64,000 bases of DNA from assembly GCA_050115495.1 (NCBI GenBank), contig JASFQK010000004.1, positions 125,609 through 189,608 on the forward strand, in the 5' to 3' direction. The translations under genes were made by a program, and so were the position numbers. This document shows positions 47,222-56,587 of the stretch, one piece after another; position 1 is the stretch's first letter, and each line of letters starts with the position of its first letter. Under the pieces are notes generated by a model. It was not told the DNA's origin. It did no database searches and was given only the letters and a program-made list of their open reading frames with translations. The stretch is from Phycisphaerae bacterium. Its GTDB lineage: Bacteria; Planctomycetota; Phycisphaerae; UBA1845; Fen-1342.

Positions 47222-48247
47222 ATGGCTCCGCCGGAGAAGAAGACAAGGCGTGAACCGGGCGACGCGCGCATGACGCTCGGTGAGCATCTCGATGAGCTGC
47301 GGACGTGTCTCGTGCGCAGCCTGATCGTGCTCGTCATCACGGCCCTGGCGTGCATCTGGCCGTCGAAGTACCTGTTGGCGATTCTCACCCGCCCGGTCGT
47401 GTTGGCTCTGCGGGCGCACGGTCAGCCGGATAGCCTTCTGGCCACGAGCCCCGTCGAGAGCATCGTCGTCTACATCAAGGTCGTACTGATCGCCGCCCTG
47501 ATCATCGCGGGGCCGGTCATTCTGTATCAGTTCTGGAGTTTCGTCGCCGCCGGGCTGTACCCGAAGGAGAAGGCCTGGGTCTATCGGCTGGTGCCGGTGA
47601 GTGCCGCGCTGTTCATCGTCGGCGTCGTGTTCATGTACTTGTTCGTGCTCGTGCTGAGCCTGAATTTCCTGGTGGGTTTCAGCGACTGGCTGCGGTTGCC
47701 GGACGCGAAACCGGGGCTCTACGAGCGGATAGTGTTGGGGCTGGGGGACGATGAGGGGGCGACGTCGCAGCCGGTTACGCCGGAATTGTGGCCGACTGTT
47801 CCGCTGCTGACTGAGGACCCAAAGGACCCGCCGCCCGGCGCCATATGGTTCAACGTCAGCGACAATCGGCTGAAAGTTCACGAGCGTCGGCACGACGGCC
47901 CGCGGACGTACTCGTACCAGTTTCAGCGGGACGATCGGCGGGCGATGGTCACGACGCACTTCAAGATCGGCGAGTACCTGAGCTTTGTGCTGGTGCTGAC
48001 GATCGCGTTCGGGCTGGCGTTTCAGTTGCCGCTGGTCGTGATCTTCCTGGTGCGGTCGGGACTGGTTTCGGTGCAGACGTTCCGGCGATATCGCAAGCTC
48101 GTGATCCTGGCGATCGTGTTCATCGCGGGCTGCCTGGCCCCGCCGGACTTGTTGAGCCATATGTTGTTATCGGGCCCGATGATCCTGTTGTTCGAGATTG
48201 GGCTGTTCATCGCGGCGCGGAAGAAGCGGGCGCCGGCGGAGGCGTGA
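47222..48247 (+). CDS. tatC: Twin-arginine translocase subunit TatC (with enlarged periplasmic loop)
   Basis: MTLGEHLDELRTCL, SPVE, YQFWSFVAAGLYPKEK, FGLAFQLP, PPD, MILLFEIG. Confidence 0.93.
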   Translation: MAPPEKKTRREPGDARMTLGEHLDELRTCLVRSLIVLVITALACIWPSKYLLAILTRPVVLALRAHGQPDSLLATSPVESIVVYIKVVLIAALIIAGPVILYQFWSFVAAGLYPKEKAWVYRLVPVSAALFIVGVVFMYLFVLVLSLNFLVGFSDWLRLPDAKPGLYERIVLGLGDDEGATSQPVTPELWPTVPLLTEDPKDPPPGAIWFNVSDNRLKVHERRHDGPRTYSYQFQRDDRRAMVTTHFKIGEYLSFVLVLTIAFGLAFQLPLVVIFLVRSGLVSVQTFRRYRKLVILAIVFIAGCLAPPDLLSHMLLSGPMILLFEIGLFIAARKKRAPAEA

Positions 48248-48290
48248 TTCGGCGGGCGCCGCCGCGTGGGTTTGGTGGGGGGCGGGGGCC

Positions 48291-48319
48291 TTGACGTGTT
48301 GGGGGGGATTGCGTAACTT
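48291..48319 (+). promoter_or_regulatory. sigma70 promoter of the tRNA pair
   Basis: TTGACG-N17-TAACTT. Confidence 0.6.
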
Positions 48320-48366
48320 TGATGTTCTGCCGATAAGGCGAGCGGGTCGGCGGAGCCGCCGGCACG

Positions 48367-48439
<73 letters not shown>

Positions 48440-48467
48440 CTGTCCGGATAACTGAATAGACCGTCCT

Positions 48468-48540
<73 letters not shown>

Positions 48541-48657
48541 TTCTTCGCAAACCACGTCGAGCGTTACGCTTGGCGTACCTGATCCAGGGGGTTCAGCGCG
48601 GCAAACCGAGGGCTTTTGCGCGGAGCACGCTCCGCGCAACGCGCAAAGGATCGCGCA

Positions 48658-48800
48658 ATGCCCCGTCAATCCACCCCGCCCGCCTACCGCAAACGCCTGA
48701 TCCGCGGCCGTGAAGTCGCCGTCGTGACACTCCGGGACCGGGAAACCGGTCGCCGGCGGGATTACTGGCTTGGGGCGTCGGAACGCCTGAGAGCCGGGCC
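48658..48800 (+). pseudogene. Truncated N-terminus of a planctomycete-type site-specific integrase
   Basis: MPRQSTPPAYRKRLIRGREVAVVTLRDRETGRRRDYWLG resembles the arm-binding N-terminus (P.YR...AVVTL...RD.YLG) of tRNA-targeting integrases; about 120 nt downstream of tRNA-Ala; no catalytic domain follows. Confidence 0.55.
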
Positions 48801-48845
48801 GCGTACGCCCGGCTGCTGCACGGCTGGTTCGGCAACATTGCCCGC

Positions 48846-49130
48846 GTGCTGCTTCCCGGGCGGGCGGCGTACATCCGGGGCGGCTGCGCCAACGTCGCCG
48901 ACTACGCGCCGGTGCGGATGGCCGCCGGGCTGTACTTCTCCCAGACGATCATCTGGGTGAAGGAGCACCCGGTCCTCACCCGCAAGGACTTCATGGGCAA
49001 CCACGAGTGGTGCTTCTGCACGTGGCGCGAGGGCGCCGCCCACGTCTTCCTTGGGCCGAACAACGCGACCGACGTCTGGTCAGTCAAGAAGGTCAACCCG
49101 CAGTCGATGGTGCACCTGACTGAAAAGCCT
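48846..49130 (+). pseudogene. Internal fragment of an N6/N4 DNA methyltransferase (phage/ICE type)
   Basis: GLYFSQTIIWVKEHPVLTRKDFMGNHEWCF..W.EGAAH...NATDVWSVKKV...HLTEKP; lacks the DPPY-type motif and the SAM-binding FxGxG motif. Confidence 0.7.
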
Positions 49131-49207
49131 CAGAATCCCACGTCCGCCGCAGGGGGCGAACGCTATAGCTTTGTCAACCCATTTGCACGCGGTTGTGCAA
49201 CGGGGGC

Positions 49208-49235
49208 TTGCAACGCGTGCCGAAAACGGTATGAT
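49208..49235 (+). promoter_or_regulatory. sigma70 promoter of the LysW operon leader
   Basis: TTGCAA(49208-13)-N16-TATGAT(49230-35); predicted start site about 49242-43, coinciding with the leader-peptide ATG. Confidence 0.6.
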
Positions 49236-49242
49236 GCTTCGC

Positions 49243-49311
49243 ATGATGAGCCGTTTGACCACCAAGAAGCCGCAGAAAAACGCCAAGCGCAAGCAGAGCG
49301 CTGCCGGCTGA
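49243..49311 (+). CDS. Lysine-rich attenuator leader peptide (22 aa)
   Basis: MMSRLTTKKPQKNAKRKQSAAG*: 5 Lys codons in a 10-codon stretch, including tandem AAG AAG; not in the ORF track. Confidence 0.7.
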   Translation: MMSRLTTKKPQKNAKRKQSAAG

Positions 49312-49341
49312 AGGTGTGGTCTTACGATATTCTGAACCCAC

Positions 49342-49373
49342 CGACGCCGGCTCCGGTCGGCGTCGTTCTTTTT
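49342..49373 (+). terminator. Attenuator terminator
   Basis: CGACGCCGGC-TCCG-GTCGGCGTCG-TTCTTTTT; its 5' arm can instead pair with 49303-49320. Confidence 0.8.
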
Positions 49374-49422
49374 CCCCACGAACGAACGTCAGCGGCCGAG
49401 CCCGTCGGTAAAGGAGATTCCG

Positions 49423-49533
49423 ATGGTGCCTTTTGCTGAGACGAGTCGGTGGCAGAGCCATAGCCCCGCCGTCAACACGCCTGCCAAGTCCAAGCCTCTC
49501 AAGCGCCAGCCGGCGGTCGCGCTCTGCGACTAG
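49423..49533 (+). CDS. Small ORF (36 aa) with strong RBS, possibly a gene remnant
   Basis: AAGGAG-N6-ATG; MVPFAETSRWQSHSPAVNTPAKSKPLKRQPAVALCD*. Confidence 0.3.
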   Translation: MVPFAETSRWQSHSPAVNTPAKSKPLKRQPAVALCD

Positions 49534-49644
49534 CCGGCCCTCCCTGACTTCCAACCTGAGTGCCTGAGACAGACACCGAGCACGGGCGGATCGGCCGCCT
49601 GTGGTCGTTGGCCGACTACTTCGCAACGAACAAGGAGCGCAACC

Positions 49645-49809
49645 ATGACCGCGTGTGTGATCTGTGGTGGAACCGTGCCTGTGCCCGCCGACGCCATCCC
49701 GGGTGAGCTGATCGAGTGTGCCGAGTGCGGCGGCGAGCTGGAGATTGTCGCTGTCGACCCGCTCGAATTGGCCGAGGCTCCGACGGAAGAGGAGGACTGG
49801 GGGCAGTAA
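49645..49809 (+). CDS. lysW: Amino-group carrier protein LysW/ArgW with atypical C-terminal EDWGQ
   Basis: [63 protein letters not shown] (54 aa, two CxxC, acidic); missed by the ORF track. Confidence 0.93.
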
Positions 49810-49882
49810 CCCGCCGGCGCCAGCCGGCTCCGCACCGGCCTGGCAAGACCATCGGCGGTCGTTCCCCATAGAGGATACAAGT

Positions 49883-50743
49883 ATGATCAGAGTCGGTTTT
49901 CTGCATTCCATCATCCGCAAGGACGAACGATTTCTGCTGGAGGAACTGCGCGATCGGCCGGACGTTGAGGTGGTGTTGATCGATGATCGCACGCTGGCCT
50001 TCCATCTCGGTCGCGACCGCCACGATCTGCATGTGCTGCTGGGACGCTCGCTTAACCGGTCCCGCGGGCTGTACGCGTCCCGCCTGTTCGCTAGCGCCGG
50101 TGTACCCTGCGTCAACATGCCCACGACAGCCGCCGTCTGCGGCGACAAGCTGCTCACCTCGGCAGCCCTGGCGGACCAGGGTGTGCCGCAGCCCGAGGTG
50201 CGCGTCGCGTTCACCGCCGAGTCCACCCTGCGGACGCTCGACGAAATGGGCTACCCGGCGGTGCTCAAGCCGGCGGTAGGCTCGTGGGGTCGGCTCCTGG
50301 CCAAGGTAAACGACCGCGACGCAGCCGAGGCACTGCTCGAACACAAGACCGTGCTGGGCTCGTACCACCACTCGATCTTCTACATGCAGCGGTACATCGA
50401 GAAGCCGTGCGGCCGCGACGTCCGCAGCTTCGTCGTTGGCGACGCGTGCATTGCGGCGATCTGCCGCACGTCGGCGCACTGGATCACCAACACAGCTCGT
50501 GGCGGGACGGTCTCCAACTGCCCGCTCACCGAGGAGCTGTGCGAGCTTTCGCTGCGGGCAGCCCAGGCGGTAGGCGGCGGCGTGGCCGCGATCGACCTGT
50601 TCGAGACCAGCGACGGGCTGCTCGTCAACGAGGTGAACGACACGATGGAGTTCAAGAACAGCATCGACGTCACCGGCGTGAACATCCCGGCCCGGATCGT
50701 CGACTACGTGCTGGACGTGGCGCGGAGGGCTGAACATGAGTAA
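49883..50743 (+). CDS. lysX: Alpha-aminoadipate--LysW ligase (RimK-family ATP-grasp)
   Basis: [61 protein letters not shown]. Confidence 0.93.
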
Positions 50744-51782
50744 GATCAACGTCTCCATCGTGGGTGGGTCCGGCTACGTCGGTGGCGAGCTGCTGCGGTT
50801 GCTACTGGCTCACCCGCACGTCGAGGTGCGGCAGGTCACATCGCAGCGGCTGGCGGGCCGGTCGGTCGGCAAGGCGCATCCCAACCTGCGCGACCGCACG
50901 AGGCTGGCGTTCTGCCAGCTAGACGCGCTGGAGCCTTGCGATGTTCTGCTGTTGTGCCTGCCGCACGGGCAGGCGATGGACGCCATCGACGAGTTCTGCG
51001 CCAGGGCCGGCTGGATCATCGACCTCAGCGCGGACTTCCGCCTGCGGAGCCCGGCCGACTGCGACAAGTGGTACGGCTACGCGCATCGCCGGCCGGAGTT
51101 GCTCGGCGAGTTCGTCTACGGTATCCCCGAGCTGCATCGCGACGCCATGCGCGCTACGACGCTCGTCTCCAGCGCGGGCTGCAACGCGACCGCCACGATC
51201 CTCGGCCTGTTCCCACTGTTCAAGCACGGTCTGGTCGAGACGCGAACACCGGTGGTTGTCGAGGTCAAGGTCGGCTCGAGTGAAGCCGGGGCTACCGCCA
51301 CGTCGGGTTCACATCATCCCGAGCGTGCTGGTTGCGTGCGTTCCTTCATGCCGACGGGCCATCGGCACACAGCCGAAATCGTGCAGGAACTTGGTGGCGG
51401 CCGCGACCTCACCGTGCACCTGTCGGCCACCACGCTGGACCAGGTGCGTGGCGTGTTGGCCACGTGCCATGTCGAGCTGCGCGACGACCTCGACGAGCGC
51501 GACATCTGGCGCGTGTACCGCGAGACCTACGGCGAAGAGCCGTTCATCCGCATCATCAAGGAGCGCGACGGCATCTACCGTTACCCCGAGCCGAAGCTGC
51601 TGGTGGGCACGAACGGTTGCGACATTGGCTTCGAACGCGATCCGCATTCGCGACGGCTGGTCGTGCTCAGCGCGATTGACAACCTCATGAAGGGCGCGGC
51701 CGGCCAGGCCGTGCAGGCCCTGAACATCATGCACGGATTCGACGAAAGGGCCGGCCTGGAGTTCCCCGGCCTGCATCCCTGA
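50736..51782 (+). CDS. lysY: [LysW]-aminoadipate 6-phosphate reductase (ArgC family)
   Basis: [69 protein letters not shown]. Confidence 0.93.
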
Positions 51783-51783
51783 C

Positions 51784-52425
51784 GTGTGCCGACTGCTGGT
51801 AGTTAAATCGACGTCCCCGTTTGCGTGTGAACCGCATCTGTGGGCCTTCGCGCACATCGCCGCACACAGCCCCGAATATCAGGGTCACGGCTGGGGCTGG
51901 GCCAGGCTCGACGGCCACGGGTACTGGCACGTGCACCGGAGCATCCGGCCCATCTGGGAGGATGACCTGGCCTCCTGTCCGGATACCACGCTGTTGATTG
52001 CCCACGCCCGCAGCGCGTTTCGCAACCAGGGCATCGCCGTCGAGAACAACATGCCGTTTCACGACAAGCGCTGCGTCTTCGCCTTCAACGGCGAGCTGCA
52101 CGGCGTCCGCCTCCGCCAGCCGGGCCGAACCGGCGCCGAGAAGATCTTCAACCTGATCCGGCGTGGCGACCGCGGCGATCTCCGGGCGGCGCTCGCCACC
52201 GCGGCGGCGGCGATCACGCGGCACACGCGCTACGTCCGGGCCATGAACATCGTGCTGTCGGACGGATACTCCGTGCACGTGCATTCGGCGTTCAACGAAG
52301 ACCCGGACTACTTCACGCTGTTCACGCGTTCAACCGAACTGGGCTTCATCGTCTGCTCGCAGCCGTACGCCGGCGGCGGCGAGTGGACCCCAATCCCGAA
52401 CCATACCCTGAGGACCTTCACATGA
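51784..52425 (+). CDS. Class II glutamine amidotransferase/Ntn-hydrolase (YafJ/EgtC/Dug3-like)
   Basis: (M)CRLL N-terminal Cys nucleophile, GHGWG, IAHARSA, ENNMPF, FAFNGEL, GAEKIF, MNIVLSDG, CSQP; tightly coupled to lysY (1-nt gap) and lysZ (ATGA overlap). Confidence 0.88.
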   Translation: MCRLLVVKSTSPFACEPHLWAFAHIAAHSPEYQGHGWGWARLDGHGYWHVHRSIRPIWEDDLASCPDTTLLIAHARSAFRNQGIAVENNMPFHDKRCVFAFNGELHGVRLRQPGRTGAEKIFNLIRRGDRGDLRAALATAAAAITRHTRYVRAMNIVLSDGYSVHVHSAFNEDPDYFTLFTRSTELGFIVCSQPYAGGGEWTPIPNHTLRTFT

Positions 52426-53246
52426 TCGTGATCAAGATCGGCGGCGGAGCCGACATCAACCATCGGGCGATCTTCGAAGACCTGCGCCGACTGCTGGACC
52501 GGGGCGAACGGGCGATTGTCGTCCACGGGGCCAACCACGAAATGGCCGAGCTCTCCGCCCGGCTGGGACACGAGCCCTGCTTCGTCCGCTCCGTTTCGGG
52601 ACAGGAGAGTCGCTACACCGACGCCGCGGCCATGGAGATCTTCCAGATGGCCTACTGCGGCAAGGTCAACAAGACGCTGGTCACGCTGTGCCAGGCCCTC
52701 GGCATAAACGCGGTTGGCCTGGCCGGCCTGGACGGCCGGCTGCTGCTCGCGCGGCGTAAGCAGGCTCTACGCGTCGTTGAGGCCAGCCGCCGCCGGATCA
52801 TCCGCGACGATCTGAGTGGCAAGGTCGAATCCGTCAACACGGCGTTACTGGACCTGCTGTTGGGCCACGGCTATCTCCCGTTGATCTGCCCACCGGCACT
52901 CGGCGACGAATCCCAGGCCCTCAACGTCGATGGTGACCGGGCCGCAGCCATGATCGCGGCAGCCATGAAGGCCGAGCGTCTCGTTATCTTCTCGAACGTG
53001 CCCGGCCTGCTGCGCGACAAGGACGACGAGGCGACGCTGATCTCCGAGATCGCGTATGCCTCCATCGGCGAATGCGAGCGGTTCGCCCAAGGTCGCATGA
53101 AGAAGAAGATCATGGGCGCCGCCGAGGCGCTGTCACTGGGCGTCGGCGCGGTCGTCCTCGCCGACGGGCGCACCACGCGGCCGTTGGAAGATGCTCTGAA
53201 TGGACGGGGCACCCTGATTCATCGAACTAATACGAGGTTACCATGA
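52422..53246 (+). CDS. lysZ: [LysW]-aminoadipate kinase (ArgB family)
   Basis: MIVIKIGGG, VVHGA, SVSGQESRYTD, GKVNK, GLAGLDG, LNVDGDRAA, SNVPGLLRD, GRMKKK. Confidence 0.92.
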   Translation: MIVIKIGGGADINHRAIFEDLRRLLDRGERAIVVHGANHEMAELSARLGHEPCFVRSVSGQESRYTDAAAMEIFQMAYCGKVNKTLVTLCQALGINAVGLAGLDGRLLLARRKQALRVVEASRRRIIRDDLSGKVESVNTALLDLLLGHGYLPLICPPALGDESQALNVDGDRAAAMIAAAMKAERLVIFSNVPGLLRDKDDEATLISEIAYASIGECERFAQGRMKKKIMGAAEALSLGVGAVVLADGRTTRPLEDALNGRGTLIHRTNTRLP

Positions 53247-54397
53247 ACGTGAGCGAACTGGCCCGAACATATGAACTGGACGTCTACGCGAAACGCAACG
53301 TGACGCTGGTACGCGGTGCGGGCGCCAGGCTGTGGGACGCCGCCGGCCGCGAGTACATCGACTGTGTCGCCGGCTTTGGCGTCGCCAGCATTGGCCACTG
53401 CAATCCGCAGGTCGTTGCGGCGGTCTCTCGCCAGGTCGAGCGACTCGTGACCTGCCCGGGCAGCTTTGACAACGATGTGCGGGCTCGGCTCTGTGAGCGA
53501 TTGATAGGCATCACGCCATCATCGCTCAGCCGTGTCTTCCTGTGCAACTCGGGAGCCGAGGCGATTGAGGCCGCCATCAAGCTCGCTCGGCTCACGACCG
53601 GGCGGACCGATTTCGTTTGCGCTACGCGCGGTTTCCACGGCCGCACGTTCGGCGCGATGAGCGCCACGCACAACCCGAAGTACCGGCAGGACTTCGAGCC
53701 CGCCGTGCCCGGCTTCAGCTTTGTACGGTTCAACGATCGTCAGGAACTGGAGGCGGCCGTGACCGATCGTACGGCCGGTGTGATCCTCGAAATCGTGCAG
53801 GGCGAGGGCGGGGTCCGCGTCGGCCGGCCGGAGTTTTTCCGGGGGCTCGACACCTGGTGTGCGCAGCGCGGCGTGCTGCTCATCATCGACGAGGTGCAGA
53901 CCGGCTTCTGTCGGACCGGCAGGATGTTTGCGTCGCTACACTACGACCTGCGGCCGGACATCCTCTGTCTGGCCAAGTCGATTGCCGGCGGATTGCCCAT
54001 GGGCGCCGTGCTGTGCTCCGATGCCGTCCCCACGCTGCGTGGCAAACATGGCTCGACCTTCGGCGGCAATCCGCTGTGCTGCGCCGCCGGTCTCGCGGCC
54101 ATCGAGTTTATGCAAGCGGAGCGACTCGACGTCCAGGCGGCGGAGAAGGGCGCCTATCTGATGAATGCGCTGCGCCAGTGCTCGCTCGACAGCGTGCGCG
54201 AAGTCCGCGGCCTGGGTTTGATGGTGGGCATCGAGTTGCGCCACCGGGTCCAGCCCGTGCTGGTGGATCTCATGAAGCGCGGCGTTCTTGCCCTGCCTGC
54301 CGGCCAGACCGTGTTGCGGCTGCTGCCGCCGTTGGTGATTACGCACGCCGAGCTTGACCGCGTGGTGGAAGTGCTGGTGTGCTCGCTGCGGCGGTGA
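53243..54397 (+). CDS. lysJ: [LysW]-aminoadipate semialdehyde transaminase (ArgD family, PLP class III)
   Basis: YIDCVAGFGV, NSGAEAIEAAIK, FHGRTFG, VQGEGG, DEVQTG..RTG, LAKSIAGG, HGSTFGGNP, RLLPPL. Confidence 0.92.
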   Translation: MNVSELARTYELDVYAKRNVTLVRGAGARLWDAAGREYIDCVAGFGVASIGHCNPQVVAAVSRQVERLVTCPGSFDNDVRARLCERLIGITPSSLSRVFLCNSGAEAIEAAIKLARLTTGRTDFVCATRGFHGRTFGAMSATHNPKYRQDFEPAVPGFSFVRFNDRQELEAAVTDRTAGVILEIVQGEGGVRVGRPEFFRGLDTWCAQRGVLLIIDEVQTGFCRTGRMFASLHYDLRPDILCLAKSIAGGLPMGAVLCSDAVPTLRGKHGSTFGGNPLCCAAGLAAIEFMQAERLDVQAAEKGAYLMNALRQCSLDSVREVRGLGLMVGIELRHRVQPVLVDLMKRGVLALPAGQTVLRLLPPLVITHAELDRVVEVLVCSLRR

Positions 54398-54519
54398 GAG
54401 TGCGACGGAGGTCCTTGGTCTTCATCGCAGGGATGATAGGGACGCGCGTTTCGCCCGACAGCGCCGCCGGCAACCGGCCCGTGCGAGGCCCGATGCCGGC
54501 GCTCGCACCACGGGCAGTG

Positions 54520-54702
54520 TCACTCCGGGTCCTCAGAAGCGGTCTGTTCCTCCAACCGCTTCAGCAGCACCCGGGCGAAGCCGGTCTCGAGGACACCCGC
54601 GCGGTTGAGAGCGACGCACTTGGTGAATGCTTCGCGAGCGGCGGCGCGGTCACCTTCGAGCAACGCCTGGCGGCGGGTCGTTTCTTTCTGGCGGGGCGGC
54701 AC
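54520..54702 (-). pseudogene. Possible C-terminal TPR fragment
   Basis: ALLEGDRAAAREAFTKCVALNRAGVLETGFARVLLKRL looks like a terminal TPR helix pair; no upstream body. Confidence 0.3.
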
Positions 54703-54736
54703 TTAGGGCGGGGTCCAGCGAGCAATGAGGGGGCGG

Positions 54737-56587
54737 TTACATCGTGACCGCCGGCAGGGTCACGGTTTGTCCCACCGCCGGCACGGGGAACGGGACGTAC
54801 TGGCCGTCTCGCCATTGCAGCCAGCGGAAGAGAGGGGAGTCGAGGTCCATGAGGAAGTGGAAGGTCGCTTCGGCGGGTCGGCCGTCGTCGGTGATGGCGG
54901 TGATCTCCACCGCCGCACAGAGCAGTTGGACGCGCTGGCCCTCGGTCGCGGGCGTGCGATCTCGGTACAGGCGGTCCAGTGTCTCGGTGGTCCGACGCTG
55001 GTTGAAGAGGATCTCGGCCATCTCGGCGTGGCTGAAGGGGCTGCCGAGCGGGGCAAAGAACCCGCCGTCCGGGCGGACGAGCAGCGTGGTTTCGTCGTGT
55101 CGTCGGATCTCGATGGGGCGGTTTCCTGAGCCGAGCACGAAGGTCGGGCTCAGATAGGGCTGGTCCCCCAGGAGGCGGGTCAGCGCGCCGTAGGTCAGCG
55201 TGGCGTAGGTCGGCGAGTTCACGATCAGGACGGTTTGGAAGCCGGCGCGCGGGGTTGGTGGGAGGCTGGCCGCCGCCCGGGCGACGGAACGGCCGATCTC
55301 TTGCAGCGCTCCCGGGGTGCGGATGAAATGGAGCGGCGACAGGACGAGGTGAATGAGGAGCAGGGTGAGGCAGAGGGCACGCGTGGCTGCTCGCAGGGGG
55401 AACAGGGCCCGCGACCGAGGGCTCTCGCGTACGACCGCTCCGACGAATTGGGCGAGCAGTCCCATTGCACCGATGCCCACGAACAATAGCAGGCGGTCTG
55501 CGGGATAGGCGGCGCAGGCCGGTAGCAGTGATAAGAGCATGCCCAGGGCCCAGAAACGGGCGAGGCGATCGTGCCGCAACAGGCGGGCGATCGCTGCGGC
55601 GATGAGCGCGAGCACTACCATCGTCACCAGCCACGTGTTGAGGGCCGCCAGCGGCGAGAGCGACCACCGGAGGTCGGACGGGATCAGCCATTGCCAGGCG
55701 AGCAGGTTCGGAGCGCGGGCCAGGACGGCCTGGGCGAACGTTGCGGGTTCTGCACCGGGATCGATGTACCACGCCGAGCCGGCGGTGCCGTAGCCGAGCT
55801 GCTTGTAGACGATCCACCAGGTGACGCCGACGAACACGCAGGGGGCCAGACACGCCAGGCGACGTGTCCGGGTGCTGCGGTCGAGGAAGAGCGCGTACGC
55901 GAACAGGTAGGCCGCGACAGCGACGGCGCTTTCCTTGGAGAGCAGGGCCAGCGCGAACGTCAGCGCGGCCAGGATGGCGCCGGGCCACCAGTGGTCGCGC
56001 CGCCAGCGGTCGTACGCGATCAGGGTCAGCAGTCCAAAGAATACGCTGAGCAGTTCGTTGCGGTTCGCGATCCAGGCGGCGGATATACCGTGGCCGTCAT
56101 CGACGGCGTACAGCAGAGCGGCGAGGCCGGCGGCCCAGGTCGGGCCAAGCAGTCGCCGGTAGAGAAACGCCGCCGCCACGACGACCGCTCCGTACCAGAT
56201 GAAGGAGTGCGCGTGCATGAACGCCGGTCGCTCGGGCCAGAGCTGGTAGTCCAGCCAGTGGGTGAAGCCGGTCAACGGTCGGAAGAACGCGATACGCAAA
56301 TGCTCGTCGGACCACCAGGGCAGGATGCCCATCGACCGGGCGAGCCGATTCGCCGCCGGATCGCCCTCGATGAAGACGAACAGCTCCGCGGCGGAGCGGG
56401 TCAGCATCGGGAACTCGGGGCGGGTCAGCGCGGCGCGATGAAAGTCGTCGTCCAGCAGCCAACCCATCCGCAGGGCGGGCAGGCACAATAGCATCGCCAG
56501 CAGCGCCAGTACCCAGGGCAGATGGCGGTGCTCCAGGCAGCGGCGCAGGCCGGCGGCGATTCGATGGAGTTTGTCGTCGAGCCGCAT
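54737..56587 (-). CDS. Polytopic membrane protein, GT-C glycosyltransferase-like
   Basis: LLDDDF after TM1, FFRPL, WIANRNELL, LLSKESAV, DRLL; about 11 TM plus a periplasmic C-domain. Confidence 0.7.
   Translation of the reverse strand: MRLDDKLHRIAAGLRRCLEHRHLPWVLALLAMLLCLPALRMGWLLDDDFHRAALTRPEFPMLTRSAAELFVFIEGDPAANRLARSMGILPWWSDEHLRIAFFRPLTGFTHWLDYQLWPERPAFMHAHSFIWYGAVVVAAAFLYRRLLGPTWAAGLAALLYAVDDGHGISAAWIANRNELLSVFFGLLTLIAYDRWRRDHWWPGAILAALTFALALLSKESAVAVAAYLFAYALFLDRSTRTRRLACLAPCVFVGVTWWIVYKQLGYGTAGSAWYIDPGAEPATFAQAVLARAPNLLAWQWLIPSDLRWSLSPLAALNTWLVTMVVLALIAAAIARLLRHDRLARFWALGMLLSLLPACAAYPADRLLLFVGIGAMGLLAQFVGAVVRESPRSRALFPLRAATRALCLTLLLIHLVLSPLHFIRTPGALQEIGRSVARAAASLPPTPRAGFQTVLIVNSPTYATLTYGALTRLLGDQPYLSPTFVLGSGNRPIEIRRHDETTLLVRPDGGFFAPLGSPFSHAEMAEILFNQRRTTETLDRLYRDRTPATEGQRVQLLCAAVEITAITDDGRPAEATFHFLMDLDSPLFRWLQWRDGQYVPFPVPAVGQTVTLPAVTM

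Follow-up and report, generated by a model that had tools for sequence, protein, structure and literature searches.

Lysine synthesis on the amino-group carrier protein (AmCP) LysW is known from Thermus thermophilus, Sulfolobus and Thermococcus, where a zinc-ribbon carrier, a lysine-type LysX, LysZ, LysY and LysJ are encoded in one operon. The product is freed from the carrier by LysK, the [LysW]-lysine hydrolase, an M20 metallopeptidase (TIGR01902). The carrier ends in EDWGE, and the argW E54A mutant of Natrinema is auxotrophic, which supports the need for the terminal Glu (PMC10433800); no report of an E-to-Q carrier mutant was met in the literature searched. The operon described here lies at 49645-54397 of a 64,000-nucleotide stretch of DNA from a Phycisphaerae bacterium (the window), with all six genes on the + strand in the order lysW-lysX-lysY-hydrolase-lysZ-lysJ. 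It has the carrier, the lysine-type LysX, LysZ, LysY and LysJ of the classical route, but it lacks LysK, holds a cysteine hydrolase of the N-terminal nucleophile (Ntn) type, and encodes its carrier with Gln in place of the last Glu. We consider it likely that this hydrolase of 213 amino acids (aa) is a non-orthologous replacement of LysK that releases lysine from LysW, and it would probably also deamidate the carrier's Gln in this organism; on balance we lean toward a single enzyme doing both.

The hydrolase gene (51784-52425, + strand) has a GTG start followed by codons for Cys-Arg-Leu-Leu, and the protein begins Met-Cys-Arg. Cys2 is kept in 119 of its 120 best homologues, and R76, N102, G103 and G117 in all 120. 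We take N102-G103 to be the Asn-Gly oxyanion hole and R76 the substrate-binding Arg, the roles of such residues in GlmS and PurF. The predicted structure (predicted local distance difference test, pLDDT, of 94) has the four-layer Ntn fold. Its top Foldseek match is EgtC (E 7.6e-13, template modelling score, TM, 0.79, 20% identity), followed by the GlmS and PurF domains. Profile scores are lower: Pfam GATase_4 gives 21.8 of 23 bits, just below its cut-off, and the EgtC model TIGR03442 gives 54.2 of 218.65 bits, far below. The family assignment therefore rests on fold and motifs. With these the label given in the original prediction, a class II glutamine amidotransferase (GATase) of the EgtC-type Ntn kind, agrees, although neither profile cut-off is reached. 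Family scans returned no M20 match for the protein. The Atlas clusters found were those of a class II amidotransferase and of LysW only.

EgtC, the ergothioneine amidohydrolase (PDB 4zfj, 4zfk and 4zfl), is likewise a stand-alone Ntn domain, and it hydrolyses a gamma-glutamyl amide (PMC5790434). Unlike EgtC, the present family falls below the TIGR03442 cut-off, has lys rather than egt neighbours (25/25 loci), carries Gly in place of the Asp of the D-S/T motif, and would act on a protein tail. Where PurF and GlmS of this genome have D-T-E, 152 of the 164 hydrolase-family sequences have G-A-E or something close to it and 12 fall outside the pattern, a match made at the level of motifs. In the D-T/S-E motif, the Asp binds glutamine through its free alpha-amino group. 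Replacement of this Asp fits a peptide-bound Glx without such a free group, that is, a substrate whose glutamyl residue would have its amino group in a peptide bond.

Across genomes, hydrolase and LysK exclude each other. The set baited with the hydrolase comprised 25 genome loci from many phyla. In all 25 a lysX, lysY, lysZ or lysJ gene lies beside the hydrolase, which stands directly between lysY and lysZ in 18, and LysK above cut-off was found in none of the 25 genomes. No M20 peptidase occurs among the neighbouring open reading frames (ORFs) of hydrolase loci (Pfam, 97 of 122 selected ORFs), and none of the ORFs in 52 fetched hydrolase-holding loci exceeds 150 bits with the LysK profile. 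The set baited with LysX was drawn from samples of 401 genomes of the bacterium's own phylum, 301 of Acidobacteriota and 301 of the phylum of the closed archaeal genome considered below, leaving out three centre genomes and one flagged as unpublished; the match threshold was about 260 bits, and two just below the cut-off were retained. Among the 69 genomes that reach it, 23 have the hydrolase without LysK, 44 have LysK without the hydrolase, and none has both. The other two are unclear, one having part of a LysK at the edge of a contig (G368) and one with neither enzyme (G211). In the bacterium's own phylum, 6 of 30 hydrolase-free genomes have weak, partial profile matches outside the lys locus (E 1e-4 to 1e-10), which are read as other class II domains. 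When both sets are pooled, LysK is found in 0/48 hydrolase genomes. Thus the coupling between loss of lysK and an adjacent class II GATase, which the original prediction had proposed to look for, appears in the LysX-baited set as mutual exclusion.

The archaeon GW2011_AR15 (locus L011) has a single closed chromosome of 1.16 Mb, on which lysW(E), homocitrate synthase, homoaconitase large and small subunits, a dehydrogenase, lysX, lysY, the hydrolase, lysZ and lysJ follow one another, and this chromosome has 0 Peptidase_M20 matches. Four other loci (L182, L209, L212 and L215) also hold a full aminoadipate-route set inside the hydrolase operon. At four loci (L082, L183, L203 and L205) a divergent hydrolase subfamily is placed after lysJ, in the very slot of lysK. 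These observations bear on an alternative in which the hydrolase would only mature or repair the carrier, converting Gln to Glu and removing mis-loaded amines, while the freeing of lysine would fall to a promiscuous M20 peptidase of the ArgE/DapE type, encoded at another place in the genome. The genome studied here does have an ArgE and seven more M20 matches, and cross-activity in the family is real, since LysK itself also accepts acetylated intermediates of the arginine route (PMC12998189). However, the closed archaeal genome combines a hydrolase operon with no M20 match at all, in about half or more of the hydrolase operons the carrier already ends in Glu and requires no maturation, and the absence of LysK from all 48 hydrolase genomes would be left unexplained. 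We regard this alternative as improbable.

In the genome of the Phycisphaerae bacterium, which is 92% complete, there are eight Peptidase_M20 matches, none of them on the window's contig, in line with the earlier statement that neither operon nor window holds an M20 LysK or ArgE. LysK (TIGR01902) above cut-off was found nowhere in this genome. The best match (100 of 163 bits, below cut-off) is an ArgE-like gene that belongs to a separate, acetylated arginine cluster (argG-argC-argF'-argB-argE-argH), and it was rejected as a lysK; this whole-genome search for lysK and argE had been called for at the outset. At 92% completeness, the absence of LysK from this genome alone is not proof. Both dapB and dapF are present. 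The lysA gene was not found in this genome, but it is likewise missing in 5/18 incomplete family relatives, so that its absence here lends weak support. One contig (C16, 4384-13250 of the fetched locus L177) carries a fungal-type homoaconitase above cut-off, a second aconitase with large and small subunits fused, and a homoisocitrate-dehydrogenase-like gene.

The carrier itself, lysW (49645-49809, + strand), is a zinc-ribbon protein of 54 aa that matches PF21344 with 56.2 bits (cut-off 27) and scores below the cut-offs of TIGR01206 and NF041070. The zinc-ribbon cysteines C4, C7, C25 and C28 are invariant, and these four residues and the tail align with 20 homologues. The protein ends in EEEDWGQ, as first read, with the terminal Gln codon CAG at 49804-49806 followed by TAA (49804-49809 together, + strand). 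A sequencing error at this codon is ruled out: a contig from another study's run (X2, depth 2.4) covers 49712-49890 with 0 differences and so also reads CAG, and both close LysW homologues returned (83% and 72% identical) have the WGQ end. The second run (X1) may be the source and was not counted.

Gln-ended carriers recur in the company of the hydrolase. Within the LysX-baited set, the carrier of hydrolase genomes ends in Gln in 11 cases and in Glu in 9, its end lying off the fetched DNA in 3, whereas in LysK genomes it ends in Glu in 44/44. Within the hydrolase-baited set it ends in Gln in 2 and in Glu in 19, and was not seen in 4. On a tree of LysX plus LysY (FastTree, 99 rows, loci without a full lysX or lysY left out), hydrolase lineages show 9 E/Q changes along a length of 12.0, with the rows chosen through the Gln pattern removed, and bacterial LysK lineages 0 along 11.6. 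Under equal rates the chance of this is about 0.002, calculated by hand. E and Q alternate among close relatives, and in a gammaproteobacterial LysW cluster all 15 members listed end in Gln. Because Gln is found in 11/20 hydrolase operons and in 0/44 LysK operons, the same enzyme probably deamidates the carrier. If, as is most likely, the active site that releases lysine also deamidates LysW(Q), Gln ends can drift in, and the Gln end is secondary to the replacement of LysK.

The original prediction had left three choices, and they do not fare equally. A dedicated Gln maturase is contradicted by the ordinary Glu end of the carrier in 19/21 hydrolase-baited and 9/20 LysX-baited loci: Glu ends are so common there that maturation alone is not the reason for the gene's presence. 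Replacement of LysK is strongly supported by the mutual exclusion, by the closed M20-free genome and by the model of the complex presented below. Since Gln has arisen repeatedly with the hydrolase and not once among the bacterial LysK lineages sampled, a combination of both putative activities is the likeliest for this window.

Alternatively, Gln could be the working residue. In one version the Ntn enzyme would charge the carrier by transamidation, from LysW-Gln and aminoadipate; in the other, LysX would behave like RimK and use the terminal Gln through its alpha-carboxyl. Amines could in principle resolve an Ntn acyl-enzyme, the family scan makes LysX a homologue of RimK, and archaeal LysX proteins encoded beside LysW(Q) (7 tree rows) depart at L158, G159, F183, T204 and A236 (window numbering), positions that are invariant or nearly so in 69 Glu-carrier rows. 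These departures may reflect either clade divergence or adaptation. In the hydrolase operons of the Gln type, on the other hand, LysX keeps its invariant residues, and no LysX column tracks Gln (none differs by 0.55 or more). Five hydrolase columns differ by at least 0.5 between Gln and Glu carriers, none at an invariant position and possibly as clade effects, so that a compensatory change for Gln carriers was rejected in both proteins. The LysX of the window, aligned to T. thermophilus LysX (3vpd), carries F-I-T-NS, which a published signature table gives as the lysine-type signature of that enzyme (PMC12998189). Moreover E and Q alternate among close relatives, and the carrier would end in Glu after a single release anyway. 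A working Gln is very improbable indeed.

A cycle can be proposed for the replacement of LysK with deamidation by the same enzyme, borrowing its first half from the established families. LysX would load 2-aminoadipate onto the gamma-carboxyl of the carrier's last residue, and LysZ, LysY and LysJ would turn it into LysW-gamma-lysine. On the hydrolase, loss of Met1 would expose Cys2, which by EgtC-type chemistry could attack the gamma-glutamyl amide and free lysine; water would then hydrolyse the Cys2 thioester and give back a Glu-ended LysW. A terminal Gln presents the same amide with ammonia as the leaving group, and so the same active site most likely turns freshly synthesised LysW(Q) into LysW(E) ahead of its first loading. 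In the predicted complex of hydrolase residues 2-213 with LysW, residues 48-54 of the carrier are modelled on Cys2 and on residues 76-79, 101-112 and 116-121 of the hydrolase. The score is 0.70, versus 0.19 for the best control; the mark used is reached by 116/157 solved complexes and 2/215 mismatched pairs, counts that are only rough for the alignments used here. Agreement of contacts between runs is at least 94%, the pLDDT of the partner is at least 82, and the interface columns of the hydrolase are 84% conserved compared with 63% elsewhere. A profile search listed no LysW-bound relative among solved structures, which makes recall of a like complex unlikely. Binding of LysW by the hydrolase is thus supported by the model, which does not show it.

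Several observations weigh against this interpretation. The controls for the complex were unrelated proteins with no other class II amidotransferase among them, and any class II groove might accommodate an acidic tail. Sub-cut-off M20 matches occur in 22/25 hydrolase-baited genomes and could be promiscuous peptidases, and most genomes in the samples are incomplete. The release type, LysK or hydrolase, switches only 3 times on the tree, so the exclusion rests on few events, and an independent-pairs test with its 3 pairs is not significant and has no power. No homocitrate synthase (HMGL-like) was found in the genome of the bacterium, which leaves its supply of aminoadipate unexplained, and a homoaconitase-like gene like that of contig C16 is also present in 2/5 relatives without LysX. 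Finally, at least 30 archaeal loci encode LysW(Q) with a true LysK and with no hydrolase within 7 kb; the hydrolase is therefore not the only route to maturation.

These archaeal carriers came from scanning metagenomes with a pattern for tails that end in Gln, which gave at least 119 stretches, 80 of them with flanks. Among these 80 matches listed, a script counted 64 as LysW(Q) and 16 not. The EEDWGQ type accounts for 19, of which the 6 of sufficient length all show the hydrolase and lack LysK. The GEDWGQ type accounts for 45: the hydrolase is in none, LysK exceeds 150 bits in 30, and the remainder are short or cut. Four LysK proteins of GEDWGQ loci were scanned and all pass TIGR01902. Three GEDWGQ carriers fall in clusters named Nitrosopumilus, Nitrosotalea and Freyarchaeota. 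Among the members listed, E and Q are mixed even within 90% clusters, with 14 Q and 1 E in Nitrosopumilus and 1 Q and 11 E in Freyarchaeota. In 15 fetched loci the cluster is of a Nitrososphaeria type with two carriers, the upstream one ending in Glu and the one directly before lysX-lysK ending in Gln. They include L060, L064, L072, L076, L084, L093, L096, L098, L120, L128, L134 and L135, taxon names being available for the clusters of L060 (Nitrosopumilus) and L093 (Nitrosotalea) only. Among listed cluster members, the second carrier ends in Gln in 14/15 and the first in Glu in 15/15. Two further loci, L097 and L103, have a single lysW(Q)-X-Y-Z-J-K operon; 11/12 listed members of the L097 cluster (Freyarchaeota) end in Glu.

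A strict coupling of Gln to the hydrolase thus fails both ways, with Glu carriers beside hydrolases and archaeal Gln carriers beside LysK. The link between Gln and class II GATase suggested in the original prediction survives as a skew in bacteria (11/20 versus 0/44) and breaks down in the Nitrososphaeria and Freyarchaeota loci. Judged at the locus, Gln neither requires the hydrolase nor is required by it. Many genomes, those of the abundant ammonia-oxidising archaea among them, encode Gln where LysW seemed to require a final Glu. Another explanation is that the hydrolase replaces LysK while Gln is turned into Glu by an unlinked deamidase or by a slow non-enzymatic imide route, the association of Gln with the hydrolase being lineage history. 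The archaeal LysW(Q) loci with LysK and without the hydrolase speak for it, as does the E/Q mix inside the 90% clusters of LysK archaea, among the members listed; non-enzymatic C-terminal cyclic imides are reportedly the subject of a paper (PMC11725857). But the 9 versus 0 changes over similar tree lengths are hard to reconcile with equal rates, and glutaminase activity is ancestral to class II amidotransferase domains. We find it rather unlikely. Near the archaeal lys cluster, a gene that by eye resembles class I amidotransferases was dismissed as the deamidase, as only 2/30 loci have it. The simplest extension of deamidation by the release enzyme, and a speculative one, is that LysK in these archaea would also hydrolyse the Gln amide.

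The nearest parallel to a release enzyme with such a double role is the Pup/Dop/PafA system of actinobacteria. There, a small protein whose gene specifies Gln or Glu as the last residue is ligated through its gamma-carboxylate, and one enzyme, Dop, both deamidates PupQ and cleaves the isopeptide to remove Pup from its targets (PMC8599861). By analogy the hydrolase-LysW system would work like Dop without being related to it: Dop has a glutamine-synthetase fold, is ATP/phosphate-dependent and serves protein tagging, and no homology is claimed. The relation to LysK would be of another kind, with the proposed reaction and place in the pathway shared, while the Ntn fold and its N-terminal Cys are unrelated to LysK in structure and chemistry. 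A broader idea is offered tentatively, as we doubt it more than we believe it. Many LysW proteins would be Gln-ended pro-carriers switched on by their own release enzyme, an undescribed form of carrier maturation. A Dop-like dual role would then have been reached twice, in bacteria and small archaea through this Ntn hydrolase and in ammonia-oxidising archaea through LysK or another deamidase. In these ammonia oxidisers nearly all lysine-side carriers end in Gln and the arginine-side ones in Glu, so that the lysine branch would have a gate of its own.

The LysW-pathway variant is real, widespread and apparently unpublished. As the original prediction had supposed for such a maturation and release branch, the literature searched contains no description of LysK replacement by an Ntn hydrolase or of an EDWGQ carrier, although much primary LysW work lies outside it and supplementary alignments could show Gln-ended carriers. 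Comparison supports the replacement of LysK well and makes the maturation step likely. If this is true, the missing last step of lysine synthesis (and of ornithine synthesis in some genomes) would be filled in about one third of the LysX-bearing genomes sampled (23/69), and a family now labelled 'predicted glutamine amidotransferase' would gain a function. Amino-group carriers, which natural-product pathways use as well, would also have a second chemistry of unloading.

The remaining genes of the operon are readily assigned. The lysX gene (49883-50743, +) encodes an ATP-grasp LysW:aminoadipate ligase (TIGR02144, 330 bits, cut-off 275.6). It is followed by lysY (50736-51782, +), a LysW-aminoadipyl-phosphate reductase of the ArgC family (TIGR01850, 382 bits, together with operon position). 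Beyond the hydrolase come lysZ (52422-53246, +), the [LysW]-aminoadipate kinase (NF010659, 351 bits, cut-off 223), and lysJ (53243-54397, +), a class III aminotransferase whose best model is NF042418 LysJ (444 bits, below its cut-off of 700) and which is above cut-off with TIGR00707. All six reading frames are intact. From lysX onward the junctions are -8, +1, -4 and -4 bases, with a gap of 73 bases between lysW and lysX; gene order, coordinates and the tight coupling from lysX onward all held when the sequence was re-checked.

The operon looks laterally gained, as LysX is found in 0/18 family relatives of this genome and the hydrolase in 0/30 relatives. Just upstream of lysW are tRNA-Phe and tRNA-Ala (48367-48541), then a DNA methyltransferase fragment (phrog_498, 48846-49436). 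An Rfam scan of 48000-55000 returned these two tRNAs only, with no riboswitch or other family. The upstream genes, with the absence of the operon from relatives, suggest lateral gain at a tRNA site. One might go further and see in the operon a recently acquired, possibly idle island in which the Gln end marks an inactivated carrier. The absence of LysX and hydrolase from relatives, the tRNA genes and methyltransferase fragment, and the lack of a detected homocitrate synthase would all suit such an island. Against it stand six intact frames with conserved catalytic residues and a Gln shared with both close homologues and with whole clades, such as the gammaproteobacterial cluster (15/15 listed). 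The missing lysA also speaks against it, tempered by the same gap in 5/18 incomplete relatives. An idle island is scarcely probable. On the other side of the operon, a 615-aa membrane-like protein (54737-56587, - strand) converges on lysJ; it has no match in Pfam or PHROG.

Some operons in the wider sets are built differently. A second lysX-family gene, or one just before the hydrolase, is present in hydrolase operons L003, L009, L010, L211, L214, L215 and L216, and suggests that these may serve both lysine and ornithine synthesis. Upstream of lysW and on the same strand, L002 (3-4617) and L007 (1-3138) have Amidohydrolase_2 and class III aminotransferase genes, joined in L007 by an aldehyde dehydrogenase; a catabolic source of aminoadipate is possible there. 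Among the LysK-type operons, L040 and L047-L051 have the order lysW-X-Y-Z-K, without lysJ.

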